From an uncultured Planctomycetota bacterium (GTDB taxonomy: Bacteria; Planctomycetota; Phycisphaerae; Sedimentisphaerales; UBA12454), in the NCBI GenBank assembly GCA_903847315.1, contig CAINDG010000038.1, forward strand, positions 67,750 to 131,749: a stretch of 64,000 nucleotides of DNA, in the 5' to 3' direction. Each line of letters begins with the position of its first letter. The first letter of the stretch is position 1. A program made the position numbers and the translations under genes. Below are positions 38,415-64,000 of the stretch, one piece after another. Under the pieces are notes generated by a model. That model did not search any database and was not told the origin of the DNA. It was given only the letters and a program-made list of their open reading frames with translations.

Positions 38415-41400
38415 TTGATTGTTTCAAAAAATTCCGTCTTTGAAATTTTCTTAACTTCCGCATAATCGTTTATCTGCCAGTCGAACCGGCAAAGCGATTT
38501 ATACGGACAATACGTACAGGCGATATTTTTTACATACCTGTAAGGTTTTACGTCAATTTCGCCTACAAGTATCCTGCCGCCAAGTTCTTTGAGCTTGTTT
38601 TCAGCAAAAGATAAAACTGCCGCAAAATGCTCGTCAGTCAAAAGCGAACTTGTTTCATAGGCGCTGAATTGCTTTTCCTTCTGTGTTATCCTGAAATTGT
38701 AAAAAGCGCTGTAGCCGGTTTGGATTTTGCCGTCGATAAGCTGGAAAAATTCGCCGTTGAAAATGCCTTTGGGTTTTCTTCTGATTTTTTCAGATTTTTT
38801 CTCAATTTCGCTCAAATCCGCCGAGTTCGGCGAGGTTTGAATCTGAAAATAAAACGCACTGAGAGGAATAAGATTTTTATATCCCAAAACAGTCAGATTT
38901 TTTACCGCGAGCAGATAAATTGGTAATTGCAAATCGAGACCTGCTGAAAACAGTGGCCAGTTAATTTTAGTTTCCGATGTTTTGTAATCGATAACCAGAC
39001 AATAGTTTGCGCCTGCTTTGGAAGCTATGTCGATTCTGTCGATTTTACCTTCGATGTGAAGTTTTTTGCCGTTTTCCAGTTTTATCTCAATGGCAGGCAA
39101 AGAATATTTGTCGCCAAAACCAATTTCAGATGCAATCTGAGAAAAACTTCCGGCAGAAGCAATCTGAGCAAATTCCAATACGGCGTTTTTGACCATCTGA
39201 GCGGCTGAAAGGATAATAAAACTGTTATGCTTCGTTCTCGCATTGAAACTTTTCAGAAACGAATCTTCAATAAGAAGTTTTTCAACTGCTCTGTCTGTAA
39301 GTCCTCCCAGCAAATCAGAGTCAGCATCGGAAAGACTGTGTTCTATGCTTTTGAGATTGTTAAATAATAATTCCAGAACTTTGTGAAAGAAAAGACCAAG
39401 ACTGAAAGGCTCCAATTCGAAAGTTTGTCTTTCCTCCAGCTCCAGGATATGTTTTGCGAAATACTGATATGGACAGCTTGCGAAAGACCTCAGCTTTGTT
39501 GCGCTGGCAGAAAGAATGTTCCTGACCGACAAATTATCAAGCCGGGCAATATTCTTATAATCTATCGCCGATTTAATCTTCCTTATATTGTCATTCCCGC
39601 AGGAATCAGAGCCGCGAATGTAAATGAGCGGTATTTCATCAATCAGCCATTTGCATCTGGCGTCCAAAGAATCGTCAGGCGATAAATTATCTCTGCCGAG
39701 ACGCGAGGCAAGCAGAGTAGTTAAATCGGAATTGCTTAAAATACTTTCAAAAGAATCGCTGCTTCCGAAATATTCTTTTTCCTGTAAGTCGTTGAATAAC
39801 GATTTTAACTGGCTGACAAGGAAACTGGGCTCAATCTTAGAACCTTTTTCGTTCCACATCGGATATGTAATATATAAATAATTGCTCGGACGCGTAAAAG
39901 CGATATAAGCAAGGTATCTGCGTTCGATAAGCTGCGATGAGCCTATGCGAGAAAGCTCAAATCCCGCATCTAAAGTAACTTTACGGTCGGCGTCGCTGAG
40001 AATATTGTCGTAATGAACCGGAATGGGAAACTGCTGCTGGGTTGCGCCGATGAGAAAAACCGCTTTCAGGTCGGGATGCCTGCTTCTTTCAATCGAGCCA
40101 ACAAGAACCTGGTCGAGTGCGGGCGGAATCAGGGCTACCGTCATATCGGAAAACGCGGAACTGATTATCGCGGCATACTGCTTTGCTGAAAATGAAGCGT
40201 TTTTGAAAATATAAGCGAAATCGTCCATCAACTGCGTAAACTGCGAGAAAAACTGCTGATGCAATTGCGCCTCATCGAGCCTGTTTGCCTCAAGTGCAGC
40301 TTTTGTCCAATCAGTCAATTGTCCTCTGACGTTCAGGCTATCGAGAAAATTAAAAAGTGCACTGCAAAATTTCTCGGCATCGATTGAACCGCTGCTTTGC
40401 AGCAAAGCCCTGAACTGCAAAAGATGTTCCGTCGCTTTGCGGCGGATTTTTTCTATTTGTTCATTATTGTAATCATCGTCAGGCGGCGCGAAATCCCATT
40501 CCTCGACGCCAAGCCAATCGTTTCCTTCAACTCCAAAGGCAAGGCAATAATTTTCAAGCTGGTCAACTTCATCCCGGCTTACAGGAACTAAATCGCTCTT
40601 TAGATAATTTATTACATCATTTGTAGTAAACCTGTCTGTCGCAATTTTCAGCGCACTTGTTATCAACTCAACTGCCGGGTATTGCTGAAGGTCTCGCCTG
40701 CGGTCGATAAAGAAAGGAATGCCGAAATCGCTGAATATCGCCTGTATGAAATGGCGATACTGGTCAATATCCGAAGCGATAACGGCTATATCGCGCCAGC
40801 GAAAACCTTTGTCCCTGACAAGGGAGCAAATCTGCCTGGCAACGTAATCGACTTCAAGCCTTGCCTTCGCACAGGCGGTAATTTTAATATTGTCCTGTGC
40901 TGAAACAGGCGGAATATCATCGAAACTGAAAATGTTTTTTTCAAGATGAGCCAGCGATTGTGAATTTTTGAAACGAGCCGGCTGGGTAAGGACAACAGGT
41001 TTTTCAACATTCAATTTTAACGACTTAATCAGGCCAAGAAGGTCGGCATAAGTTTTTGCCGTAGGCTCAAAGATGCCGGTATAGTCGTTCTCTGCTGCGG
41101 CGGGGTCAAGACACAGAGCAATTTTAGACGAAGCGGAAACTTTTAAAAGCTCCGTCAACAAAAGCATTTCAGAAGTAGTAAACCCCGCGAAACCATCGAC
41201 CCATAACAGGCAATTTTTGAGAAACGGCGTGCCGGCGACAGAATCTCTGGCAAGATTTAACTGGTTGTCGTTATTGAGGAAATTGCCTTCGACAAAGGCA
41301 AGATATTGTTTGTAAATCAGATTTATATCGGCAAGTTTGGAACAGGTCAGTTCCGAGGCGCCTGAACTTTTAAGATTTTCAAGAAGCCTGCCGACATCGT

Positions 41401-52321: not shown

Positions 52322-54592
52322 CTAATTATTGACAGACGCTTTTCGTGAATTCTGATCTGACGGGGCATTCGATTCGGCAGGTACAGCTTTCAAAAGTTTT
52401 TGCCAACTATCGAGCCGACTCGACCATAACGGACGCGGGGCGTTAACCGGAACTTTTATAGTAGAAAGAGCAAGTAAAATTTGTTTTGCCACCTCTTTTT
52501 CCTGTTTCTCCGAAAAATACCTGTCGAGCACTTTCGAAATCTCCGCATCCGGTCCGATATCAGACGAAAGCAGGACATTGGCCAAAAGCTGCTTGGCAGA
52601 TTCAGTCTGGCCCGCGCGTAAATTCACATCAAGCAGTTTAGCGGTCAACTGTTCTTTTTCATTAGGGTCTGTAGCAACAAGTAAAAGCATTCCATAATAT
52701 TTTGTCGCCAGGCCGTACAGCGAACTGGCAGCGTAGTGCTCGGCAAGCGTGCGCCGCAGGGAAGTCAGCGTATTTACGTCCTGCTCGGCCTCGGCTTTCT
52801 TCTCGGCTGTTTCAAACAATATCCTGGCTCTTGCAAGAAGAAATTCGTCTTTTTTCAACTTTGCCTGATTGGACAATTGCTGCGCCCATGAAACCAGAAC
52901 ATCGGTCTTGCAGTATTGGAAGATATTCATCATCGCATCGGCGGCGTGCTGCCGTTCATCGTCTGAGGTGGCAGTAGTCACCAGGGTGCCAAGCCAGTCA
53001 AGGTCCTGCTGGGTGCCAATCTGGCCGGCTACTGCGATAAGTTCATCGCGTATTTTGCTGCTCGAATGACTGGTAAAGCCCTTGCTTTTTAGTATTTCAA
53101 AAGCTCCGGCCCGATCAATCCTAAGAAGGCCGGTAGCGGCAGGCGTCGCAATCTGATCGTTTTTGTCATCTATAGCCCCAAGAAAAATATCTTTGAACAC
53201 TTCGCCGGCAATAGTTTTGTAAAAACTGTCATTGCCGCATAATCGTGCCATCTCTTCTATAAGGCGGGCCTTTTTCTGTTCTTCCTTTGTCTGACGATAA
53301 CTGGCAGCAATAAGTTCGAAGTAAGGTTTTACCTGCGATGCCTCAAGGCCGTCCTGCAAAAGCAGGTTTCGTATAACCTCCGCGGCAGTTACGGGATTTG
53401 TATCCTTGAAAAACTCGGCGGCGATATTCAAGGCCTCGATTCTGACCTGCGGGTCTATTTTTACTTCGGCTCCGGGCGAAAGGGCAAAATTACAGACATG
53501 GCCCATCGCGACAAGTATCTCGGTTTTGACATCGGCATTTGTTTCTGTCTTTAGCTGCGCAAGCAGTGCATCTGCCGAATTGATATTGGTCAGCAGTCCG
53601 AGCAGTTTTGCCGCGGCAAGTCTCACCATAGGGTTTGGGTCGGAAACGAGTAAAATAAGAGGTTTTTGCAGAACATCGAGAGGCAAAGGTTTGCCGCTCT
53701 TTTGCCACATATTAATTTTTTCAATTGCCCAAAGCCTTACTGAGCTGTGCTCAAAGGTAAGATTTTCAGAGACGAATTTTGCGCGTGCGCTGTCATCCGT
53801 TGTCGCCTGATAAGTATTGTCCAGGGCCGTCAGATATCTTTTCTGCCATTTTGTAACTTCATCGTTATACAGACTTATCTTGTCCTGCTGGGAAAGCAGT
53901 CTTTCACGAATAATATCCACTCGGCCTCTTTCGATATCCCTGCGGATTCTTCGCCATTCCTGTTTGTCTTTGGTGCCTGGCATCCATTCCTGCAGCGCAT
54001 CCGATGCAGCCGAGACAACTACACTGTCTTCACTGTCAAGCAGAGTTATAAGCAGCAGGATGGTTTCTTTGTCAGGACGAATCTGAAAAGCATAAATCGC
54101 ATTCTTTTTCGCCGCAGCCGGAAGGCTTGAGGTTCTTATTATTTCCTCAAGATGGTCTTTAACCTCTCTGTATGTGAAAATCAAAGAGGCCTGAGCCGCG
54201 AGGTTTGCCACTTCAGCGTTCTGACCCTTAATAATATTCATCAGAGGGTCCATAAAATCCCCTCTGTCGGAAATAAGCTGTGACAAACTCCTGAACCGGA
54301 TTATGGCCTTGCAGACAGAACTTTGAGCGGCAATATTATCGGTCGAGGAAAGGGCTTCGAGAAGAACGCCTCTTGCCTGCGTACCGGGATTTTTCAAAAG
54401 TTCAACTGCCGTATCTATCCGTATTTGCTCGTCATTTGAATTAAAAAGCGTCCATTTATTGATTTTCAGCTGACTGCTGTTTTCCTGCGGAGCTTGACTG
54501 TCCGCATAAAGCGAAGAAGTAAGGCTAAAAAGCAGGAACAACAATAAAATTATGTCTTTGGTGTCCGGTTTTTTGGGGTAAATCGAGTTCAT
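52322..54592 (-). CDS. Secreted HEAT-repeat protein
   Basis: 756 aa with a signal peptide. Recurrent HEAT/PBS-lyase-like units (..VRLWAIEKI.., ..PMVRLAAAKLLG.., ..ARGVLLEALSS..). Confidence 0.55.
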   Translation of the reverse strand: MNSIYPKKPDTKDIILLLFLLFSLTSSLYADSQAPQENSSQLKINKWTLFNSNDEQIRIDTAVELLKNPGTQARGVLLEALSSTDNIAAQSSVCKAIIRFRSLSQLISDRGDFMDPLMNIIKGQNAEVANLAAQASLIFTYREVKDHLEEIIRTSSLPAAAKKNAIYAFQIRPDKETILLLITLLDSEDSVVVSAASDALQEWMPGTKDKQEWRRIRRDIERGRVDIIRERLLSQQDKISLYNDEVTKWQKRYLTALDNTYQATTDDSARAKFVSENLTFEHSSVRLWAIEKINMWQKSGKPLPLDVLQKPLILLVSDPNPMVRLAAAKLLGLLTNINSADALLAQLKTETNADVKTEILVAMGHVCNFALSPGAEVKIDPQVRIEALNIAAEFFKDTNPVTAAEVIRNLLLQDGLEASQVKPYFELIAASYRQTKEEQKKARLIEEMARLCGNDSFYKTIAGEVFKDIFLGAIDDKNDQIATPAATGLLRIDRAGAFEILKSKGFTSHSSSKIRDELIAVAGQIGTQQDLDWLGTLVTTATSDDERQHAADAMMNIFQYCKTDVLVSWAQQLSNQAKLKKDEFLLARARILFETAEKKAEAEQDVNTLTSLRRTLAEHYAASSLYGLATKYYGMLLLVATDPNEKEQLTAKLLDVNLRAGQTESAKQLLANVLLSSDIGPDAEISKVLDRYFSEKQEKEVAKQILLALSTIKVPVNAPRPLWSSRLDSWQKLLKAVPAESNAPSDQNSRKASVNN

Positions 54593-54676
54593 ATTCTTAA
54601 TTCGTCTTTTTTGTAATATACGCTTTAACAGTATTTTATGTTCTGCAAGAATGATTTCAAATAAAAATAATAATTA

Positions 54677-55783
54677 TCAGTAATTTAGCAATTTTTGTGC
54701 GATTTGAGCCGCTGCATCGGGTCGGGCAAGGCCGGCACAACTTTGCCTCATTTTGGAACGCTTTTCATCCGAGCTGATAAGCTCGCAAAGGACAGGCCAT
54801 AAAAGCTTTGCGGTCTTTTCCGTATCGCATAAATCTTCGACTAAACAGGCACAACCGGCCTCGACAAGGAATTGTGCATTTAATTTCTGATGTTCGTCGG
54901 CATGGTAAGGATAAGGCAGACATATCGCAGGAGTGCCGGAGGCGGCAAACTCCGCAATACTCATCGCGCCTGCCCTGCCGATGACAATGTCCGCCGCGGC
55001 GAGCAAATTCGGCATATCATCGTAATAATCCAGAACCTTATTGGTTATCTTCGTCTGATTATAAAGCGTCCGGACAGAGTCGTAATGGATAATACCGGCC
55101 AGATGAACAATCTGCCAACTGGACGCAAAAACTTCCAGCCTGTCCAAAATATAGCCGATAACATTATTTATATTTGCCGCCCCGCCGGATGCCCCTGTTA
55201 TAAGCAGAATATTTTTTTTCGGACTTAAACCCAGCGTCTCAACTACCTTATTTTTGTCGGGATTAAAAAAATCCTCTCGCAGTGGACAGCCTGTTACCGT
55301 AACTTTCTTATTATTCAAGCCGAAATAATGGCTGGTTTTTTCGAATTGAACGAAAATATCTTTCGCATAACGGGCAAGAAAGCTATTTGCCTTGCCCGGC
55401 ACCGCATCAATATTAAGCATCGCAACCGGTATTTTCAAATCCCATGCGGCCAGAACTGGCCCTGCGGAAACAAAACCGCCCATACTGAAAAGAACGGCTT
55501 TTTCCGGTTTATCGCCCAGTATTGTCTGTTTCACAATTTTTTTAGAGGTGAAAATAGACCTTAAAAATAAAAAAAACTGGTAAGGATTCTTTGAAAACCC
55601 CCTGGCCGGCAAAGGAATAAAACGCAAACCTGTTCCGGCAAGAATTCTCGCGTCTATCGGCCTGTCGCTGCAGAAAAAAGTTATCTTACAGGACGGCTCG
55701 GCTTTTAAAAGCTCCTGCGCCACCGTAACAGCCGGATAAATATGACCGCCGGTGCCTCCGCCGGCAAAATAAAAATGCCTCAT
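54677..55783 (-). CDS. murG: UDP-N-acetylglucosamine-N-acetylmuramyl-(pentapeptide) pyrophosphoryl-undecaprenol GlcNAc transferase
   Basis: 368 aa. FAGGGTGGHIYPA and the ..RAGAMSIAE.. C-domain. It is adjacent to ftsW. Confidence 0.9.
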   Translation of the reverse strand: MRHFYFAGGGTGGHIYPAVTVAQELLKAEPSCKITFFCSDRPIDARILAGTGLRFIPLPARGFSKNPYQFFLFLRSIFTSKKIVKQTILGDKPEKAVLFSMGGFVSAGPVLAAWDLKIPVAMLNIDAVPGKANSFLARYAKDIFVQFEKTSHYFGLNNKKVTVTGCPLREDFFNPDKNKVVETLGLSPKKNILLITGASGGAANINNVIGYILDRLEVFASSWQIVHLAGIIHYDSVRTLYNQTKITNKVLDYYDDMPNLLAAADIVIGRAGAMSIAEFAASGTPAICLPYPYHADEHQKLNAQFLVEAGCACLVEDLCDTEKTAKLLWPVLCELISSDEKRSKMRQSCAGLARPDAAAQIAQKLLNY

Positions 55784-55893
55784 CCCGCACCTTCAAAATA
55801 TTCGATAAAACATTTCGGAAAAATGGATAGTTTATCAAAAAAAAGGATTATATTCATTTTAAGGAAAATTGAATAGATAAGAAGGTGCGGGAT
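55782..55893. repeat. 112-bp element with perfect 13-bp terminal inverted repeats (MITE-like), copy 1, between ftsW and murG
   Basis: ATCCCGCACCTTC (55782-55794) and GAAGGTGCGGGAT (55881-55893) flank an 86-nt AT-rich core. The left arm overlaps 2 nt of the murG ATG and the right arm overlaps 1 nt of the ftsW stop. Confidence 0.9.
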
Positions 55894-57053
55894 CATACCG
55901 CTTCACTCCTTCGAGCTATGGCCGCAAGAATCCCCGCGGCGGCGGCGGTAAGAAACAGATGGGTTCCGCCGGCGCTTATAAAAGGAAGAGCGATGCCCTT
56001 TGTGGGTAAAAGACGGGTAACAACGCCAAGATTCATTGCCGCTTGCGCAGTAATTGACAGGACAATTCCAAATGCGAGCAATTTGCCGAAGTCGTCATTG
56101 CATCTGCGAATTATGATAATGCCAAGCACAATAAAAAGTGAAAACAGCAAAATCAGGAAGCAGACGCCGACAAAACCGAGCTCTTCGGCGATTATCGCAA
56201 AAATAAAATCGGTGGTATCCTCCGGCAGATGGCCATACTTGCTGACGCCGCTGCCCAGGCCCTTGCCTAAAATTCCGCCGGTTGAAACGGCAATAAGAGA
56301 CTGCTTGATTTGATAGCCGGAGGTCTGTGCTGTCGAATCGCCCGGCCGGATGAAAGACTTTATTCTTTCAATTCTCTCAGGAGAAGAAAATATCGCAAGG
56401 GCAAAAACAATAACCAAAACCGGCAATGGCGTGAGGAAATGCCACCATTTTCCGCCCGCTACAAATAAAATCACAAGACCGACAAATGTTACAAATACAG
56501 CGGTGCCGAAATCCTGAATGAGTATAAGTACCGCCATAACACCTATAAGCGAACAAATCGGAACAAATCCTTTTAGAAAATCCTTAAGCTTTTCGCCAAG
56601 CATTACCGACACCGCGGGAACAAATAAAACAAGCGACCACTTCGCAAGTTCCGACGGCTGAAAACTGATTTCCACCGGCCCCAGCGGTATTCTCAACCAG
56701 CGGCGGGCATTGTTAATCTCCACTCCTATGCCGGGGATAAGCACTGCGATAATCAATACAAGACTAATGCCGACAAGATAAACCGTGGGGTTTTTAGCCC
56801 AGCTTGCAAGAGTATTGTCGGACAAAGCAAGTTTTCGATAATCAAACAGACTAAAACCAACCGCAAATAGAATCGCTGCAAGAAAAAACAATGTCTGGCG
56901 AAATTCAGGATACGAATAAAATCTGGTAAGGTCGTATTCAACATCGATTCTGGCGCTCGCGCTGAAAACAAAAATCGCTCCAATCGCCATAAGCGTAACC
57001 GCAAGGCAAACTGTTATATTCGCAATCGTTTGGTTGTCAGGTATTATCTTCAC
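55893..57053 (-). CDS. ftsW: FtsW/RodA/SpoVE family peptidoglycan glycosyltransferase
   Basis: 386 aa and polytopic. GLGSGVSKYGHLPEDTTDFIFAIIAEELGFVG. It lies upstream of murG. Confidence 0.85.
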   Translation of the reverse strand: MKIIPDNQTIANITVCLAVTLMAIGAIFVFSASARIDVEYDLTRFYSYPEFRQTLFFLAAILFAVGFSLFDYRKLALSDNTLASWAKNPTVYLVGISLVLIIAVLIPGIGVEINNARRWLRIPLGPVEISFQPSELAKWSLVLFVPAVSVMLGEKLKDFLKGFVPICSLIGVMAVLILIQDFGTAVFVTFVGLVILFVAGGKWWHFLTPLPVLVIVFALAIFSSPERIERIKSFIRPGDSTAQTSGYQIKQSLIAVSTGGILGKGLGSGVSKYGHLPEDTTDFIFAIIAEELGFVGVCFLILLFSLFIVLGIIIIRRCNDDFGKLLAFGIVLSITAQAAMNLGVVTRLLPTKGIALPFISAGGTHLFLTAAAAGILAAIARRSEAV

Positions 57054-57158
57054 GACAAAAGATTATCCGCAAAACAAAACAAATAATCAATCACAAAACT
57101 AAAAAGACACATTGTAGTTTTTGATAGACTTAAACGCCAATAAAACTATAATCCGTAT

Positions 57159-57656
57159 ATGCCGATGACACCATTTCATTTCGGACCTTCAGGACTAATT
57201 GGGTATATTTTCAGAAAATGGATAGACCTGCCGGTGTTTGTGCTTGCAAACGTGGCAGTGGATACTGAAGTACTGCTGGTAAGATGTATGCAACTCGGCT
57301 GGCCTTATCACAGGCTCGGCCATACTTTTCTCATAGGTTCAGCCATCGGGGCAGTATGGGGATTGATTGCTTACGCTGGGCTGCCGGTTCTGAACCGGCT
57401 TATGAAAAAAATCAGGATACCATACCAGACAAACATCTTTAAAATGGTTATTTCGGGAATTCTGGGAGTCTGGCTTCATGTGTTTATTGATGGAATTTAT
57501 CATTACGACGTAAAGCCTTTCTGGCCGATAAGAAAAAATTGCCTGTGGAGATTACTATCGCAAAATCAGGTTAAATGGATATGTATCATCTGCCTTGTAA
57601 TATTTGCGATACTGTACGTGCTGTCGCTGAAAAAACAATCCGCCAAAAAACAATAA
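57159..57656 (+). CDS. Membrane protein, possibly a DUF457/YdjM-like metal-dependent hydrolase
   Basis: 165 aa. YHRLGHTFL and HVFIDGIYHYDVKPFWP resemble the His-rich motifs of that family by eye only. Confidence 0.4.
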   Translation: MPMTPFHFGPSGLIGYIFRKWIDLPVFVLANVAVDTEVLLVRCMQLGWPYHRLGHTFLIGSAIGAVWGLIAYAGLPVLNRLMKKIRIPYQTNIFKMVISGILGVWLHVFIDGIYHYDVKPFWPIRKNCLWRLLSQNQVKWICIICLVIFAILYVLSLKKQSAKKQ

Positions 57657-57659
57657 CTT

Positions 57660-58409
57660 TTATTTTTCCGGCTTAATATATATTTTAAGCTGCTTATCTT
57701 CAAAGACTACTTGTTCTTTGCCGTCATAGATTATTGTTTTACTGCTTGTGCTTACGGCGTTTTGGCCGATTGGAACGGTTATCGTAAAGTTGTACATATC
57801 GGCATTTTCTTTTTTACCGGCAAACTGCCATTTTATTTCCACAGGCGCCCGCTCTTTCGGACCGCAGGTCATACCCATTGTAATCGCCAAATCATTCGCC
57901 TTAAACTGCTCAGGCGTAAATAAAGCCTCGGCACAGTTATCCGCGGGATTGGCCTTATCGTTGACGATGCAAATCCATCCATTAACAGCCGGTTTCTCAC
58001 CGGCCGGAATCGGCGACACAATGCCGGAGTGCATTTTTAGTTTTTTGTGCAAAGAAATTGTCGTCGCGGAATTAATGAACAAAAGCACCCCGATAACCGT
58101 CAGCAGAACCGCAAGACCCGCCGATGAAGTCGCTATACCGGAAATCGCAAAGCTTTTACCCCGGAGTTGCCCGCCGGACCTATTGATGCGATTAAGCGCG
58201 ATTATTCCGAAAACAAGGCTGATTATCCATACAACGCCGAACACTCCCAGCAATGGAAAACTGCTTATGCTCAGTATCATTGAGGTAATAGCCATACCGC
58301 TGGTTCTAATCGGCTTGCTGTAAACAAACACTCCGCCGCAGCTTTGGCAAATCGCAGCGTTTTCAAGATTTTCCGCACCGCATTTTTGACAGTACATTTT
58401 CCACCTCAC
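57660..58409 (-). CDS. Zinc-ribbon plus DUF4190-like membrane protein
   Basis: 249 aa. YCQKCGAEN..CQSCGG ribbon, then two TM helices with the LNRINRSGGQLRGKSFAISGI pattern. Confidence 0.6.
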   Translation of the reverse strand: MRWKMYCQKCGAENLENAAICQSCGGVFVYSKPIRTSGMAITSMILSISSFPLLGVFGVVWIISLVFGIIALNRINRSGGQLRGKSFAISGIATSSAGLAVLLTVIGVLLFINSATTISLHKKLKMHSGIVSPIPAGEKPAVNGWICIVNDKANPADNCAEALFTPEQFKANDLAITMGMTCGPKERAPVEIKWQFAGKKENADMYNFTITVPIGQNAVSTSSKTIIYDGKEQVVFEDKQLKIYIKPEK

Positions 58410-58459
58410 CTAAAAATATATCGTAATCATTTTAATATAGCGACAAAGGATATTCAACC

Positions 58460-61075
58460 TTATTGTTTTCGCAGAAAATCCTTTATTTCGTTGAGCAGAT
58501 TAATCGCCTGTATCGGCGTAAGATTATTAACATCAAGGCCTTTGAGCTTTTCGAGAACATCTTTTTCCTTCTGGTCGAAAAGCTGGGCAGAATCGGGCTC
58601 TTTCGTTCTCTGTTTTGTGAGTTTATCGCCCGAGGCTTCTTTTTGGAAAGTATTTTCCAGCTCGGCGAGAATTTCTTTACTGCGTTCGAGAATAGATTTT
58701 GGAATACCGGCAAGTTTCGCAACGTGTATGCCGTAACTTTTGTCTGTGCCGCCGGGAACAATCTTGTGCAGAAATACCACCTCGTCCATCCATTCACGAA
58801 CCGCTACATTGCAATTCTTGACATTGACTAAAAGTTCTGCGAGAGCCGTAAGTTCGTGATAATGCGTCGCGAAAAGCGTTCTGCATTTAATTTTATTCGC
58901 GATATGCTCCGTAATCGCCCATGCAAGAGACAGGCCGTCATAAGTGCTTGTTCCCCTGCCGACCTCATCGAGAATCACAAGAGATTTTTCAGTGGCGTTG
59001 TTGACGATATTTGCCGTTTCTGTCATCTCGACCATAAAAGTCGATTGCCCTCTGACAATCTCATCAGAAGCGCCGACACGCGTAAAGATTCTGTCAACCA
59101 GCCCTATCGTCGCCTGCTTTGCGGGAATAAAACTTCCCGTCTGAGCAAGCAATACAAGCAGTGCCGTTTGCCTGATATAAGTGCTTTTACCGCTCATATT
59201 GGGGCCTGTGATAATTATTACATCGCCTTTATCTGCGCCAAGTTCGACATCGTTCGGCACAAATTCGCTTCCCAAAATTTCAGCAAGAACAGGATGCCTG
59301 CCGTCATTGATAATCAACTCTGTGCCGTTTGTTATCCGCGGCCTTGTATAATTTTGCGACAAGGCCAAATGTGCGAAAGCACAAAGACAATCGACTGTCG
59401 CGACAACTTCCGCAAGCGATTGAATCTTGTCAATATATTCTGCGCACTGAACACGAAGCTGTTCAAATAGCCGCTGCTCAAGTTCAAGACTCTTTTCGCC
59501 CGCGGTAAGAATTTTCTCTTCATATTTCTTTAATTCATCCGTTATATACCGCTCTGCATTTTTTATCGTCTGCTTGCGAACATAATCGGCAGGTGCTTTA
59601 TCCGCGTAAGAATTGGTAATTTCGATATAATAGCCGAAAACATTATTAAATCCGACTTTGAGATTTGTTATGCCGGTGCGTTCAATCTCCTTCTGCTGGT
59701 ACTGCGCAAGCCAGGCCCTGACATCCTTCGATATATTCCGTAACTCGTCAAGTTCAGGATTAAAACCTGCCCTTATCACTCCGCCGTCGCGAAGATGATT
59801 GGGACAGACCGGCTCAATCGCCGACTCCAAAACCTGTGCAAGCTGCGGCATACAATCGCAATTCTGCGAAAGTTTCACGAAAATATCGGCAGTTAACTCT
59901 GAAAGCAGTTTTTTAAGCGGCTCTGCTTTTTTCAGACTTTGCGAAAGAGCCAAAAGGTCTCTTGGGCCTGCCCTTTGCGTACTAATCCTCGCGGCTATTC
60001 TTTCGAGGTCGGCAAAATTTTTCAAAATGCCGCGTATCTGCTCAAGTGCGTTCTTTTTCTCAATCAATTCTTCAACAGCGCCTTGTCTTAACTCTATTGA
60101 CCCCGCATCACACAAAGGCATACATATCCAGTATCGCAGCATCCTGCCGCCCATTCCCGTCAGCGTCCGGTCTATCGTTTCAATCAAAGAACCCCTGCCG
60201 CCGCGAATCGTCGAAAGAACTTCGAGACTTCGCAGCGTCGTCTGGTCTATCTGAAGAAATTTTTTCTGCTCGACAAGTTTTATCCCGGAAATATGACCCA
60301 GCGCGGTCTTCTGCGTCTCTTTCAAATATTCAATTACCGCACCGGCGGGACTGATAACGCCGCTGCCGTCTTTTATGCCGAACCCTTCAAGCGTCTTGGT
60401 ACCGAATTGGCTTATAAGCCTCTTATAAGCATCGTAAGGCTCAAAATACCATCCGGGCCGATATGTTATCGCTGTATTGCCGGATTGCTCAATCTGTGCC
60501 GCGAGCTTTTTAATCTCCTCGCTGAAAAGTTCGCCGCGCCCGTCAGGCAAAATACATTCTGCCGGCGAAATCCTGAGAATTTCATCGACCACAGCGTTTT
60601 CAGGAACAACACGTGCGAAAAAATGACCTGTCGAAACATCCACCCAGCTTATCGCGGCTGTTTTTGCATTGAGACTTACCGCACAAAGAAAATTGTCCTG
60701 CTTTTCTTCCAGCAGCATATCGTCTGTAAGTGTGCCGGGCGTGATAATCCGGATTACATCGCGTTTCACAACGCCCTGCGCAAATTTTGGATTTTCGATT
60801 TGTTCGCAGACGGCAACTTTGTAGCCTGCCTTAATCATTTTTTTAAGATAGCCGTCAACCGCGTGGAAAGGAACACCCGCAAGCGGCACAGGATTTTCGC
60901 CTTTACTTCTGCTGGTCAGTGTCAGCCCGCAGACCTGCGAGCAGGTTTTAGCATCCTCGAAAAAAGTCTCATAAAAGTCCCCCATCCTGAAAAACAATAT
61001 GCAGTCAGGGTATTTCTTCTTGAAGTTGTCGTATTGCTTCATCGCCGGCGTTAATTTGTCCTGCTGGATATTCAT
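58460..61075 (-). CDS. mutS: DNA mismatch repair protein MutS
   Basis: 871 aa. TPAMKQY..FFRMGDFYE, GPNMSGKST and DEVGRGTSTYDG. Confidence 0.95.
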   Translation of the reverse strand: MNIQQDKLTPAMKQYDNFKKKYPDCILFFRMGDFYETFFEDAKTCSQVCGLTLTSRSKGENPVPLAGVPFHAVDGYLKKMIKAGYKVAVCEQIENPKFAQGVVKRDVIRIITPGTLTDDMLLEEKQDNFLCAVSLNAKTAAISWVDVSTGHFFARVVPENAVVDEILRISPAECILPDGRGELFSEEIKKLAAQIEQSGNTAITYRPGWYFEPYDAYKRLISQFGTKTLEGFGIKDGSGVISPAGAVIEYLKETQKTALGHISGIKLVEQKKFLQIDQTTLRSLEVLSTIRGGRGSLIETIDRTLTGMGGRMLRYWICMPLCDAGSIELRQGAVEELIEKKNALEQIRGILKNFADLERIAARISTQRAGPRDLLALSQSLKKAEPLKKLLSELTADIFVKLSQNCDCMPQLAQVLESAIEPVCPNHLRDGGVIRAGFNPELDELRNISKDVRAWLAQYQQKEIERTGITNLKVGFNNVFGYYIEITNSYADKAPADYVRKQTIKNAERYITDELKKYEEKILTAGEKSLELEQRLFEQLRVQCAEYIDKIQSLAEVVATVDCLCAFAHLALSQNYTRPRITNGTELIINDGRHPVLAEILGSEFVPNDVELGADKGDVIIITGPNMSGKSTYIRQTALLVLLAQTGSFIPAKQATIGLVDRIFTRVGASDEIVRGQSTFMVEMTETANIVNNATEKSLVILDEVGRGTSTYDGLSLAWAITEHIANKIKCRTLFATHYHELTALAELLVNVKNCNVAVREWMDEVVFLHKIVPGGTDKSYGIHVAKLAGIPKSILERSKEILAELENTFQKEASGDKLTKQRTKEPDSAQLFDQKEKDVLEKLKGLDVNNLTPIQAINLLNEIKDFLRKQ

Positions 61076-61083
61076 AGGTGATA

Positions 61084-62244
61084 TTATACAACAAATTCGC
61101 CTTTTAACAACTCTTGTATAAGCCCCTCAATTTGCTGTTTTGTGTCCGCGGAAACAGCTTTTTCTAATATTTTTTTCTGCCTGTCTGTAAAACAGACGGT
61201 CTTTCTAATGTCGAAATCGACAACGCCGAGGGTTTGTTCTATTTCATCAATAAGTTCTTTTACTCCGCTGCCGGTTTTTGCGCTGATTTTCAAACCATCG
61301 ACAAGTAAATTATTCGCCAAATCACATTTGTTATAAACAACAAGTTTGTTTAGCCCCCGCACCTGTGGCGGGGGTTCGTTATCCCCGCGAAAACAGCAAT
61401 CCAGCACATACAATACCAAATCACAATTTTTTATTAATTCAATAGCTTGTTTCTGTGATTGTGCTTCAACTATATTTTTTTCACTTAACGTCTCATCGAG
61501 ACCGGCCGTATCGAAAAATTCCGCTTGTATTCTTTTCAATCGGATTTTCGCACTGAGCCAGTCCCGCGTTGTGCCTGCGATATCCGTTACAATCGCTTTT
61601 TCTTTTCCGCAAAGACGATTAAACAATGTGCTTTTGCCGCTGTTGGGCGGGCCCGCAATGACAATCTTTGCGCCATTAATAAAAAAGTTAGAAATCTTAC
61701 TATCGCTCAAAACCTGCTCTGCGCCTGCTTTAATATCGTCAATCTGCATTGTGTTAATATTTTTCAGCCACCACTGGCAGCTCTGCAAAAGACCCATCTT
61801 CGTCTGATGACGGATTATCTTCGCTCCGTAAATTGTCGCAGCTTTTGTTTCCGCGATATCAGCCTCTATCGCAATTGTGTTATCGCCGTGTTTCTGCCTG
61901 CCCAAGTATGTTAGAATTTCCTGCGGCTCTGCAATCTCTGCCCCCTGCTTTTTCAGCAGTTCAAGAATATTTTCAACAATAATCGGATTGCCATGACAGT
62001 TTATACTGAAACAATCTGCCTGTTCACAGCCGATTATCACCTCGTCAATCGGAGTATTGCCGTCAAAGATATTGCCGTGAAGAATTGAACCGATTGAAAA
62101 AACTGGAGGTTTGTCGCTTAATGGTTTAAAAATTTTCTTTAAAATATTCTCGCAATCAGTCCCAACAAGCTGAATGCTCGATATCGCACTGGCGGCTTTT
62201 GCCGTCATCAGAGCCGCTATACATTTATGTTTTTTCGCCGACAT
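61084..62244 (-). CDS. MnmE/TrmE-like GTPase (divergent, lacks the C-terminal CIGK motif)
   Basis: GPPNSGKSTLFNRL, DTAGL and NKCDL form the G domain. The N-domain resembles MnmE (CIAALMT..ISSIQLVG; IDEVII..INCHGNPIIVENILELL). I moved the start to the ATG at 62244. The track start at 62394 would overlap coaX by 170 nt. It contains hairpin repeat copy B in frame. Confidence 0.65.
   Translation of the reverse strand: MSAKKHKCIAALMTAKAASAISSIQLVGTDCENILKKIFKPLSDKPPVFSIGSILHGNIFDGNTPIDEVIIGCEQADCFSINCHGNPIIVENILELLKKQGAEIAEPQEILTYLGRQKHGDNTIAIEADIAETKAATIYGAKIIRHQTKMGLLQSCQWWLKNINTMQIDDIKAGAEQVLSDSKISNFFINGAKIVIAGPPNSGKSTLFNRLCGKEKAIVTDIAGTTRDWLSAKIRLKRIQAEFFDTAGLDETLSEKNIVEAQSQKQAIELIKNCDLVLYVLDCCFRGDNEPPPQVRGLNKLVVYNKCDLANNLLVDGLKISAKTGSGVKELIDEIEQTLGVVDFDIRKTVCFTDRQKKILEKAVSADTKQQIEGLIQELLKGEFVV
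61349..61378. repeat. GC hairpin repeat, copy B (inside the mnmE-like gene)
   Basis: TTTAGCCCCCGCacctgtgGCGGGGGTTCG, with a 7-bp stem. Confidence 0.9.
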
Positions 62245-63022
62245 ATTTCTTATACGCAAGGACAATTCCTTTGACCACAAGGTTATCGACAAATGAATCT
62301 GCAAAATCGCATCCGCTCCTGATAATTTCCATATTTCCGCCGGTAACAACCGTCTGCGGCCATTTGCCCAGATGCTCCGAATAGAGCCTTCCAATTATTT
62401 CAAGAGCGCCTATCGCGGAATAATACAAGCCGTTATTAATTGCCTCGGCGGTATTTTTGCCGAATGGTTTTTTCGGAATTTTGACTTTGCCGATTTTAGG
62501 CAGTCCTGCCGTGTACCTGTTCAGCGCCTCAGCCGATATATCGAAGCCCGGCATAATAGTGCCGCCCAGAAAAACGCCTTTGTCATCGACAACATCAATC
62601 GTTACCGCTGTGCCGAAATCGGCGACAATAACCGCATCTTCGACAACGCTGTACGCCGTAAATGCCGCCAGAATCCTGTCAACGCCAATCTGCCCCGGCC
62701 CGTCAACGTCAAGCTCCATCGGCAGCGGTACATCTTTGCCGAATCCTATCTCAAGAATTTTTTCGCCCAATTGTTCCTGTACAATTTTTTTTACTGTATC
62801 CATCCAGTCGGGTTTTACGCTTGCGATAACAATTACGCCGTCGCGTTTTGTCTTATCTCTGCTGGCTTTCGCCAATGGAATCCTGTCCCAGTAGTTTTTC
62901 AAAACCGCGGCAATTTCTTCTGGCTTATCGCCCTTGGTCTTTTCAATCGTCGCTTCCGCGTCACCGATAAAAAGCCCCGCCGTTATATTCGTATTACCTA
63001 TATCTATCGCGATAATGTTCAT
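62225..63022 (-). CDS. coaX: Type III pantothenate kinase
   Basis: 265 aa. MNIIAIDIGNTNITAGLF and the GVDR..DFGTAVT pattern. Confidence 0.9.
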   Translation of the reverse strand: MNIIAIDIGNTNITAGLFIGDAEATIEKTKGDKPEEIAAVLKNYWDRIPLAKASRDKTKRDGVIVIASVKPDWMDTVKKIVQEQLGEKILEIGFGKDVPLPMELDVDGPGQIGVDRILAAFTAYSVVEDAVIVADFGTAVTIDVVDDKGVFLGGTIMPGFDISAEALNRYTAGLPKIGKVKIPKKPFGKNTAEAINNGLYYSAIGALEIIGRLYSEHLGKWPQTVVTGGNMEIIRSGCDFADSFVDNLVVKGIVLAYKKYVGEKT

Positions 63023-63132
63023 CCCGCACCTTCTTTTTATTCAATTTTATTTAAACCTGTTATAATTCTATTATTTTTTCGATTAATTAAAAAATATACG
63101 CAATATATCGAATATTTAGAAGGTGCGGGATT
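63021..63132. repeat. 112-bp element with perfect 13-bp terminal inverted repeats, copy 2 (inverted relative to copy 1), upstream of coaX
   Basis: ATCCCGCACCTTC (63021-63033) and GAAGGTGCGGGAT (63120-63132) flank an 86-nt AT-rich core. The left arm overlaps 2 nt of the coaX ATG. Confidence 0.9.
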
Positions 63133-63198
63133 CATTCCGTCCCTTTCTAATGCCGGAAGCTTATCGGAAAACAGATAAATAATCAATCACAAAAGAAA

Positions 63199-63294
63199 CA
63201 GAGCCGCGACCGTAAGCGAGCGGTATGTTTTCGCGTTTTATTTAGCCCCCGGTTTTACCGGGGGTTCAGAGCCGCGACAGTTATGGAGCGGTAT
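63199..63294. repeat. Composite repeat: 28-nt direct repeats flanking GC hairpin repeat copy C
   Basis: CAGAGCCGCGACCGTAAGCGAGCGGTAT (63199-63226) and CAGAGCCGCGACAGTTATGGAGCGGTAT (63267-63294) are 24/28 identical. Between them lies TTTAGCCCCCGGttttaCCGGGGGTTCA (63241-63268). Confidence 0.9.
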
Positions 63295-63583
63295 TTTAAT
63301 ATTGTTTAGCCGTCGCCGGCACGGCGATGTCGTTTGCCCCGTGAGATGCCGTTTCGGCTATCTCATCGGGGTCATTGCGAGGCTTGCCCGCCGTAGGCGT
63401 GGCCGAAGCCGAAGCAATCTCAGTTAAGGCCATTCCCTTATATCGCAGTTTTGACACATAATATATGTTATGGGACAAGCATCGGAAATCCCATTTCGTC
63501 ATTTCGAGCGGAGGTCCTTTATGGCCGGAGTCGAGAAATCTCTGAAATTTCAAATCTTAAATTCGTCCCTCCTGCTCTACTGT

Positions 63584-64000
63584 TCACCTGTTCTCCGCTT
63601 CGGCTATACTATTCGGCTCTTTGGCATTGGGATCTGTCAGGAATATTTTTGACCTTGCCGCCATCGCACTGCCATACTCTGCATGCAGAGGATTGTTATG
63701 GTCAGCGTTCGGGACTAATCTGAATAACCACTTAAAGGTTGTCTGTAGTTTTAGAGCTTCGGCTTTGGCTATTCCATAGAAACGCTTGGCCATCCATACC
63801 CTGTCATATTCATGAAATTGACCTTCTTTCGGCATGGTTTTAGACATCAGGTCTCTGGCGCCCATAAGAATTACCATCTCTTTTGCAAACGATTTTTTAA
63901 GAGACTCTTTTGTGACGTATGTGCCTTTAAGCCCTTCATAAGGTATCTTATCAAAAACTGGTGCTGTATAATCGCCCGCCCCATTGGCGATTGCCAGTGA
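63584..64000 (-). CDS. Hypothetical protein, C-terminal fragment (ORF enters from beyond the window end)
   Basis: 139 stop-free codons run from position 64000 to the stop at 63584 (SLAIANGAGDYTAPVFDKIPYEGLKGTYVTKESLKKSFAKEMVILMGARDL...). The track shows only the part after an internal Met. No family recognised. Confidence 0.55.
   Translation of the reverse strand, partial: SLAIANGAGDYTAPVFDKIPYEGLKGTYVTKESLKKSFAKEMVILMGARDLMSKTMPKEGQFHEYDRVWMAKRFYGIAKAEALKLQTTFKWLFRLVPNADHNNPLHAEYGSAMAARSKIFLTDPNAKEPNSIAEAENR

Follow-up and report, generated by a model that had tools for sequence, protein, structure and literature searches.

A probable miniature inverted-repeat element, derived from a GIY-YIG nuclease cassette, at the ftsW-murG stop/start overlap of a Planctomycetota bacterium

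How does a cell wall gene come to begin on a repeat that could hide its own start codon? In the 64,000-nucleotide stretch of DNA from an uncultured Planctomycetota bacterium analysed here (contig CAINDG010000038.1, positions 67,750 to 131,749; hereafter the window), ftsW and murG are separated by a 112-bp sequence with perfect inverted repeats at its ends, one of which carries the Shine-Dalgarno (SD) sequence of murG and two thirds of its start codon. This sequence, which we call copy A, might be a mobile element, a portable promoter or a regulatory RNA. We consider it likely that copy A is an internal-deletion derivative, similar to a miniature inverted-repeat transposable element (MITE), of a mobile cassette of ~300-340 bp encoding a GIY-YIG protein of ~90 aa, and that it was inserted in the ftsW/murG ATGA overlap, providing a new SD and a rebuilt AUG while the coupling of the two genes was kept by a translational relay. 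The features of the locus, in window coordinates, are:

55782..55893, minus strand: copy A, a non-autonomous element of 112 bp in the ftsW-murG spacer, consisting of 13-bp terminal inverted repeats (TIRs) and an 86-nt AT-rich core
55782..55794, minus strand: gene-proximal arm of copy A, ATCCCGCACCTTC, in mRNA form GAAGGUGCGGGAU, holding the SD GAAGGUG (55794-55788) and the AU of the murG AUG
55881..55893, minus strand: gene-distal arm of copy A, GAAGGTGCGGGAT, in mRNA form AUCCCGCACCUUC, anti-SD-like, its first base being the A of the ftsW stop
55893..55895, minus strand: ftsW stop codon TGA, contained in the left-flank ATGA, which under a 2-bp duplication model would belong to the original target
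55781..55783, minus strand: murG start codon, made of the terminal AT of the element and the G of the duplicated target
54677..55783, minus strand: murG, host gene with an element-supplied translation start (NCBIfam TIGR01133, 2.2e-68, alignment from residue 1)
55893..57053, minus strand: ftsW, upstream host gene (NCBIfam TIGR02614, 9.1e-96)

The arms of copy A are complementary at 13 of 13 positions (100%) with 86 nt between them, and an imperfect extension takes the inverted repeat to ~23 bp. The initial annotation had described perfect 13-bp repeats around an 86-nt core, with the ftsW stop, arm, core, arm and murG ATG following one another on the minus strand, and all of its sequence statements are correct; the order reads ...GCGGTATGA-TCCCGCACCTTC-(core)-GAAGGTGCGGG-ATG-AGG.... 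Since the TIGR01133 alignment runs from residue 1, the ATG at the junction is the real murG start. MITEs are smaller than ~500 bp, lack a transposase gene and are bounded by TIRs, and copy A agrees on each count, its sole open reading frame (ORF) being a 38-aa frame without family match.

The arms are not a chance match, since the same 13-mer pair recurs in the window and in public genomes. Within the window the pair is repeated at 63021 and 63119 (four exact matches, where 1.29 would be expected even with two mismatches allowed), and there it bounds a second member of the family:

63021..63131, minus strand: copy B, same family, 111 bp, in the majority 'type I' orientation, with flanks ATGA/.../GAA (slashes mark the ends of the element); nhmmer E = 1.8e-22
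62225..63022, minus strand: coaX (type III pantothenate kinase), its ATG made at the junction with copy B
63037..63135, minus strand: upstream ORF of copy B, MNPAPSKYSIYCVYFLINRKNNRIITGLNKIE followed by a stop, running from the left-flank ATG to a TAA 17 nt before the coaX ATG

Copy B, which has no upstream gene, also ends in GAAGGTGCGGG-ATG, here at the coaX start. What copies A and B have in common is the arms and 26-29 bp of subterminal sequence, and their cores are inverted relative to the downstream gene, that of copy A being in the minority 'type II' orientation.

One genome per GTDB species was scanned for the exact arm pair, with the flanks absent from the search pattern. The pair was found in 86 stretches of public genomes, giving 92 unique perfect-arm copies, most of them in metagenome-assembled genomes (MAGs) of the Phycisphaerae/Sedimentisphaerales and a few in Omnitrophota, Nitrospinota, Patescibacteria and a 'Deltaproteobacteria' MAG. 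By a hand count from the scan listing, a single MAG holds ~10-19 perfect-arm copies. The element is not unique, and with two copies in the window and 92 in public MAGs it has the multiple dispersed copies of a MITE. The median pairwise core identity in the family is ~64%. The nearest fetched genome, HGW-Planctomycetes-1, is 76-79% identical to the window at the DNA level.

When the copies are oriented by the neighbouring gene they read ...ATGA/ATCCCGCACCTTC...GAAGGTGCGGGAT/GAA..., with nearly invariant flanks. In 79 of the 92 copies one end makes the ATG of an ORF that is 80 codons or longer (median 281); of these start-codon copies, 66 have ATGA as the left 4-mer and 74 have GAA as the right 3-mer. 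The core is in type I orientation relative to the gene in 69 and in type II in 10, with equal flanks in both, and since both core orientations show the same gene-relative flanks, the flanks belong to the target and not to the element. In Planctomycetota MAGs, 76 of 80 copies lie at gene starts (~95%, against ~35% expected; binomial P ~1e-30), the expectation being the share of gene starts among the non-intragenic ATGA sites of the window (19/55). A preference for ATGA combined with the loss of intragenic insertions was considered as the source of this association and rejected on the same two percentages. Members of the AT-arm subfamily would insert at ...AT/GA/A..., a site that is typically either a start codon with A after it or the point where two operon genes overlap by ATGA.

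A metagenome scan with MurG gave 18 related loci. In seven of them (L099, with 85% MurG identity; L100, with 80%; L101, L102, L106, L107 and L114) ftsW and murG meet in an element-free ATGA overlap, while the spacers of L068 and L115 contain the element. In L115 the element is exactly at the overlap site: the empty junction ...gacgtATGAGGCAC (ATGAGG) of L101 is matched in L115 by ...gacgtATGA/ATCCC...GGGAT/GAAGCAC, in which GA is duplicated. Since close relatives have an empty ATGA overlap, and one of these, L101, has a MurG 99% identical to that of the filled L115, we firmly conclude that the element is an insertion. Copy A thus adds to its other MITE features a target-site duplication and empty sites in relatives, and the first option of the initial annotation, a MITE-like insertion that brought its own ribosome-binding site, is borne out by the dispersed family, the short duplication and the empty sites. 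The copies in the ftsW-murG spacers of the window, L068 and L115 belong to a single insertion lineage (the cores of the window and L068 are 87% identical, versus the family median of 64%), and each of these three filled lineages has an empty sister lineage. Elsewhere among the related loci, L104 and L105 (~1350-1500; 68% MurG identity) have a different ftsW-murG spacer of ~140 nt without arms, with repeats aaaatcaaaagtcaaagattaaaagtcaaaatt and a GC hairpin (ggattcggcctgaaggccgag); in these the junction appears to have been interrupted independently by something else.

The simplest reading of the junctions would be 13-bp TIRs with a 2-bp (GA) duplication of a target AT/GA/N. This is favoured since full-length elements with the one-base arm variant ACCCC...GGGGT still have ATGA as their left flank and have GTGA, with a GTG codon, at the right junction. 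A 5-bp duplication (ATGAA) was not adopted, as ATGA on the left and GTGA on the right of these AC...GT-arm full-length elements fits 2 bp better.

The family also includes variants that differ in their arms or cores. Copies with AC...GT arms (L003:7146-7253, L062:3358-3465, L010:5171-5277 and L033:1469-1567) read ...GTCAAC/CCCGC...GCGGG/GTCAA... and lie away from gene starts. The outermost dinucleotide of the arm, AT or GT, equals the first two bases of the flanking repeat, which hints that the arm ends may help to select the target or that the true duplication may be 5 bp. A subfamily of ~103 nt (L049:1333-1435, L007:6543-6645, L013:7555-7656, L015:3203-3305, L014:129-231 and L031:1813-1915) has identical arms around a different, GC-rich core with two internal hairpins (CCTGCGGGG...CCCCGCAGG and CCCCGCAGC..GCTGCGGGG). 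It is found in Nitrospinota, Patescibacteria and a 'Deltaproteobacteria' MAG, where mis-binning of MAGs is possible, and has flanks ATAA/.../AAA; five of the six copies lie away from gene starts and the L007 copy adjoins a 209-codon ORF. Its mean column identity across phyla is 86%, with four pairs showing compensatory changes in RNAalifold, and a search of these loci against Rfam at E up to 0.1 gave only tRNAs and one sub-threshold chance match. In L086:3285-3395 (Candidatus Kerfeldbacteria MAG JAZDNT010000003.1) arms extended to ~18 bp (ATCCCGCACCTTCCTCTG and its complement) surround a complete tRNA-Val(GAC) with no AT-rich core, which may represent a mobilised tRNA, a stem used in processing or the capture of a tRNA by an element. 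Micro-derivatives of little more than two arms were also seen, namely ATCCCGCCCGACCGTGGTGCGGGAT, nested in the L115 ftsW-murG copy (~1452-1477), and ATCCCGCACCTTC-TT-GAAGGTGCGGGAT in L023:948-1050, together with paired arm-like matches 26-60 nt apart in L024, L033, L037, L046 and L061; they suggest nested insertion or extreme internal deletion. No arm pairs of mini or full-length size were found in viral contigs, which gives no evidence for a phage vector.

The origin of the core is revealed by its coding content. Read from the left-flank ATG, type I copies encode MNPAPSKYS-Y-VYLLKS-...-LYIGYTN-...-EQKEGAG before a stop, and the best-preserved of these translations gave a partial match to Pfam GIY-YIG (E = 0.007, profile positions 2-24) that is sub-threshold and was used as a lead, confirmed via intermediates and full-length genes. 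The protein databases contain graded intermediates, among them versions of 38-67 aa, two of which carry the Joint Genome Institute (JGI) label 'predicted GIY-YIG superfamily endonuclease'. Querying with the 47-aa version in HMMER recovered four matches, among them an 80-aa intermediate, P0014, in which the MNPAPS...YIGYT N-terminus is followed by a C-terminal half typical of GIY-YIG proteins; P0008, P0082 and P0094 are further internal-deletion forms. There are 75 full-length proteins of 84-119 aa, and in 42 of the 75 the arm-encoded MNPAPS and/or EGAG end is inside the called ORF. The five that were scanned match PF01541 with 53-65 bits (gathering cutoff 22.6; E 4.4e-14 to 6.5e-18), and the catalytic residues Y15, Y26, G28, R36, H40, N41 and E72 are at least 95% conserved among the 75. 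The closest structures are those of UPF0213 proteins (1zg2, E = 1.1e-7; 1ywl, 3.7e-7), then SLX1 (4xlg, 1.6e-3). On these matches the protein of the parent cassette can be assigned to the GIY-YIG nuclease superfamily. No DDE, serine or HUH transposase was found in the full-length elements, where the sole ORF between the arms is that of the GIY-YIG protein (Pfam PF01541 and PF10544 only).

Both window copies retain traces of this gene. In copy B the remnant is on the gene-sense strand (tblastn, P0016 residues 1-27, E = 2e-6), and in copy A, with its type II core, it is antisense to murG:

55802..55873, plus strand: what is left of the C-terminal coding portion of the parent GIY-YIG gene, lying antisense to murG (tblastn, P0064 residues 64-87, 58% identity, E = 0.006)

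A look-up of P0064 returned no record. Since the same arms bracket full-length GIY-YIG genes and graded intermediates exist, we are confident in reading the 112-bp element as an internal-deletion derivative, which would have kept N-terminal and C-terminal codons and both arms of a GIY-YIG cassette of ~300-340 bp. Copy A can on these grounds be described as a MITE, although one whose parent would not be a classical insertion sequence (IS). The longer element has the same arms and graded deletion products, and its GIY-YIG protein would be a candidate for the enzyme that moves the family.

The full-length cassettes occupy the same kind of site. That of L119, a 299-bp element with perfect AT-type arms, lies between the fumarase-C gene and ychF, its left ATGA being the stop of the fumarase-C gene and its right junction, GGGATGAAA, the start of ychF. 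Others were found between gcvPA and gcvPB (L090, with a 4-nt overlap on each side), between an RND adaptor and its pump (L093), between two ABC permease genes (L096), before nrdR (L117) and before another host gene (L098). Each of the six points in the direction of its host gene. In L090, L093, L096 and L117 there is a 4-nt overlap between the cassette ORF and the host gene that follows, and the right arm still makes the ATG of the host gene in L098 and L119. When L090 and L119 are read directly, no obvious SD is seen before the internal ATG of the GIY-YIG ORF. In L096:3001-3407 the full-length cassette, a mini-element with a 45-aa ORF and the host permease gene are chained by 4-nt overlaps, that is, tandem insertions at one start codon.

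What, then, would the insertion do to the translation of murG? The proximal arm pairs with a generic anti-SD at a family mean predicted energy of -9.8 kcal/mol, and the gap between GGUG and AUG is 4 nt. Upstream of the left-flank ATG there is SD-like complementarity (-4.9 vs -2.8 kcal/mol in a control region, Wilcoxon p = 2.8e-5), as expected if the left ATG was the original start codon. The initial annotation had suggested that in a readthrough RNA the arms can pair over the SD and the AU of the start codon, and this was reproduced computationally: the predicted arm-arm duplex has an energy of -24.3 kcal/mol (local minimum free energy -35.5 kcal/mol, z = -2.9), and the mean predicted probability of being unpaired from the murG SD to the AUG is 0.05 in the read-through transcript versus 0.43 without the upstream arm. 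The further suggestion, that murG is uncoupled from ftsW by the element, probably has things the wrong way round, given the ancestral ATGA overlap and a frame that crosses the element with ATGA at both ends:

55780..55896, minus strand: 38-codon 'relay' ORF, MIPHLLIYSIFLKMNIILFFDKLSIFPKCFIEYFEGAG followed by a stop, its ATG overlapping the ftsW stop (ATGA) and its TGA overlapping the murG start (ATGA)

This frame is annotated as a gene in L088 and is open in all three orthologous copies (117 nt in the window, 117 nt in L068 and 144 nt in L115); the differences between them, a nested insertion of 26 nt and indels of one base, add up to a multiple of three. Neither the sequence nor the register of the peptide is conserved among the orthologues, whereas openness is. 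Across the family, frames span the full element in 14 of 20 copies where an upstream gene ends at the left ATGA, versus 11 of 52 otherwise (Fisher p = 2e-4). Eight of the ten type II copies are open, and since their frames run antisense to the nuclease ORF this openness is not inherited from it. The insertion therefore probably retains the translational coupling of ftsW and murG, and translation of the relay frame through the element may be what opens the hairpin hiding the murG SD.

We propose the following course of events. The ancestral ATGA overlap of ftsW and murG would have been the landing site of copy A, with at least the GA of the target duplicated on insertion. The left copy of the target would preserve the ftsW stop and an ATG, the right arm would supply the new SD (GAAGGUG), and the terminal AU together with the duplicated G would restore the murG AUG. 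In the read-through mRNA the arms would pair and bury the murG SD and AUG. Ribosomes ending ftsW would re-initiate at the left ATGA and translate the 38-codon frame; on passing the distal arm such a relay ribosome would open the hairpin, and after terminating at the right ATGA it would start again on murG. In full-length cassettes the host gene's own SD and ATG would serve for translation of the nuclease (MNPAPS...).

Several points weigh against this reading. The window contains no intact GIY-YIG cassette, its copies carrying remnants only, and the protein of ~90 aa is a catalytic domain without evident DNA-binding domain, so that another enzyme may move the element. The size of the duplication is ambiguous, being 2 bp or up to 5 bp (ATGAA, GTCAA) if the outer arm bases belong to the target, and copy A, like its orthologue in L068, is one A short at the left junction (ATG/ATCCC). 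The start-codon share is inflated by the ascertainment of perfect arms: a profile search of 620 kb of fetched genome loci gave 10 further copies with imperfect arms, of which only five are at gene starts, the other five being four AC...GT-arm copies that are flanked by a GTCAA direct repeat and do not lie at gene starts, and one cut by the locus end. Furthermore, orthologous insertions in different MAGs were counted separately, and this lack of phylogenetic independence makes both the Fisher and the binomial P value optimistic. For a single copy, the probability that a 38-codon frame is open by chance is ~0.14. Finally, the patchy ftsW-murG pattern would be accounted for by recurrent precise loss, perhaps through the ATGA repeats, or by lateral or recombinational spread just as well as by transposition.

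The last point leads to the rival that survives best, though we regard it as rather unlikely: that the element spreads by homing, with nuclease breaks repaired from the filled allele, or by simple homologous exchange of filled alleles among strains, and not by cutting or copying and pasting, the direct repeat being target microhomology. The window, L068 and L115 belong to one lineage (87% versus 64% core identity) in which each has an empty sister, one with a 99% identical MurG; GIY-YIG proteins are classic homing endonucleases, and phage seg genes are free-standing intergenic cassettes (PMC2988022). Like the seg genes, the elements lie between conserved host genes with presence/absence polymorphism, and the full-length relatives encode a GIY-YIG nuclease, of which the window copies have remnants. 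However, seg-like homing endonucleases have one long cognate target and a fused DNA-binding domain, whereas here there are ~80 different insertion sites with only ATGA(A) in common, and the proteins of 84-119 aa have no DNA-binding domain for the recognition of a long site. Perfect TIRs, internally deleted derivatives that outnumber intact genes, and a dinucleotide duplication in the comparison of filled and empty sites are typical of transposons.

A second rival places the start of murG transcription within the core, at a motif pointed out in the initial annotation:

55847..55875, minus strand: promoter-like TATTCA-17 nt-TATAAT toward murG, with a perfect -10 box and a -35 that matches TTGACA at 3/6 positions

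A murG mRNA begun there would lack the distal arm, leave the SD free (predicted unpaired probability from SD to AUG 0.43) and be uncoupled from ftsW. The motif is indeed present, with a perfect -10 box, and is kept in the three orthologous ftsW-murG copies, and an internal transcription start site at this locus is possible. As a property of the family, however, an own promoter is not supported: the strict motif is found in 3 of 79 copies and a relaxed form in 17 of 79, and the relaxed motif, where it occurs in type I copies (12), faces away from the gene in nine and toward it in three. The -35 is poor, the motif was not reported by a consensus scanner, and TATAAT may be incidental, as it corresponds to C-terminal codons of the nuclease gene read in reverse complement. 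A portable promoter would also leave unexplained the open frame retained through indels, and we judge it improbable as the explanation of copy A.

The other option of the initial annotation, a dedicated cis-regulatory RNA (riboswitch, thermometer or protein-binding leader) evolved to control murG by sequestering its SD, has in its favour a stable predicted hairpin that masks the SD and AUG and arms that are invariant among the orthologous copies. We nevertheless consider it very unlikely. No Rfam match was found at E up to 1 in 54500-64000, which includes both window copies; the same element precedes ~80 functionally unrelated genes, in both orientations, and is missing from close relatives with otherwise near-identical loci; and its core, derived from a protein-coding nuclease gene, has no conserved part resembling a ligand pocket (median pairwise core identity ~64%). 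That the 38-codon ORF encodes a functional small hydrophobic protein, such as a divisome-associated membrane peptide, was rejected as the least probable reading of all, for although three orthologues keep the hydrophobic frame open, with ATGA overlaps on both sides, and one assembly lists it as a gene, its register and length change between orthologues (MIPHLL... vs MNPAPS..., 38 vs 47 aa), it has no Pfam match at E up to 10, it runs antisense to the nuclease-gene remnant and other copies give unrelated peptides, so that openness is conserved but neither sequence nor register.

Some neighbouring features of the window may be recorded here. Just upstream of copy B, a 31-nt direct repeat, CAGAGCCGCGACNGT...GAGCGGTAT, is present at 63199-63229 and 63267-63297 (84% identical, 68 nt apart). 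The 12-mer GTCGCGGCTCTG within it occurs exactly at those two sites only in the window, with one further match at one mismatch (39607-39618; 0.15 expected), and the repeat region has no Rfam match. Downstream of murG, the ORF at 52322-54592 (minus strand, 756 aa) has no NCBIfam match and only weak HEAT repeats in the precomputed Pfam annotation. Between mutS and ftsW, the ORF at 57660-58409 (minus strand, 249 aa) likewise has no NCBIfam match, and has DUF4190 and a weak zinc ribbon in precomputed Pfam.

If our preferred reading of copy A as a start-codon insertion derived from a GIY-YIG cassette is true, a selfish element can reside inside operons at almost no cost, borrowing the host's initiation signals and returning a ready SD and AUG. 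Mobile DNA would then supply the initiation regions of housekeeping genes (murG, coaX, gcvPB, nrdR, ychF, and ABC and RND transporter genes), and the expression of these genes could hinge on a common hairpin and on upstream translation. A GIY-YIG nuclease would join the enzymes of TIR-bounded bacterial elements, linking homing-endonuclease-like cassettes with MITEs. The family would account for recurrent 'hypothetical proteins' of 38-60 aa and truncated 'GIY-YIG endonucleases' in Planctomycetota and Omnitrophota MAGs, it can confuse gene-start prediction, and it would offer a compact natural system for the study of termination-reinitiation through an SD-sequestering hairpin. More tentatively, and with somewhat less than even confidence, we suggest that the full-length and mini-elements together could constitute a new class of prokaryotic transposon, bounded by the arms and encoding as its only protein a GIY-YIG nuclease of ~90 aa. 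Such a transposon would target the start codon at AT/GA/A, have its nuclease read from the host SD and ATG, return an SD and start codon through its right repeat and, running from ATGA to ATGA, be 'translation-transparent' between coupled genes; its MITE derivatives would have rewritten the initiation regions of dozens of genes per Phycisphaerae genome, with relatives in Omnitrophota and possibly in candidate-phyla bacteria.

Parts of this arrangement are familiar from other systems. UPF0213/YhbQ-like proteins and SLX1 (1zg2, 1ywl, 4xlg) are likewise single-domain GIY-YIG proteins of similar size. To our knowledge they are regarded either as products of ordinary cellular genes whose function is unclear or as structure-specific nucleases, with no TIRs, start-codon insertion or deletion derivatives attached to them, and none of the three turned up in the part of the literature that was searched. 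ATGA stop/start overlaps mediate coupling by termination-reinitiation in operons (PMC6728339). The empty ftsW/murG junction is such an ATGA, and after insertion both junctions are ATGA, for which we propose two consecutive termination-reinitiation events. Unlike in ordinary ATGA overlaps, the intervening 'gene' is a mobile-element remnant without a conserved peptide, and the downstream SD lies in a predicted 13-bp hairpin.

The nearest described lifestyle is that of segA-G of T4-type phages, which are free-standing, promoter-less GIY-YIG homing endonuclease genes located between conserved genes and co-oriented with them (PMC2988022). Some seg cassettes overlap the upstream stop codon, suggesting translational coupling, and show presence/absence polymorphism between relatives (PMC2988022). 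SegA cuts with a 2-nt 3' stagger (PMC2988022), and a stagger of this type would fit a 2-bp duplication. However, seg proteins have a DNA-binding domain and one cognate target, and the genes are single-copy in phage genomes, without TIRs or MITE-like derivatives, whereas the present family occupies many chromosomal sites, has perfect TIRs and a catalytic-domain-only protein, and gave no viral-contig matches. The insertion strategy is unusual and apparently undescribed: in the part of the full-text literature that was covered, no description was found of TIR-bounded GIY-YIG cassettes or of MITEs at start codons donating an SD.

Among small chromosomal repeats, the Correia elements of Neisseria and ERIC/IRU (enterobacterial repetitive intergenic consensus, or intergenic repeat units) are ~100-150 bp long, with TIRs, a short target duplication and many copies per genome, and are co-transcribed, so that a TIR hairpin in the mRNA can alter expression. 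The present family resembles them in its small size, TIRs, short target duplication and multiple copies. It differs in that its parent is a GIY-YIG cassette of ~300 bp and not an IS with a DDE transposase, in that insertion is at the start codon itself, with SD and two thirds of the start codon held in the TIR, and in that frames through the element tend to be open when it splits coupled genes. Rickettsia palindromic elements (RPEs) are short palindromic mobile repeats that are also tolerated by keeping frames open, but they insert inside ORFs and become host protein. The family described here instead inserts at gene boundaries, leaving the host proteins unchanged and supplying the signals with which their translation is initiated.

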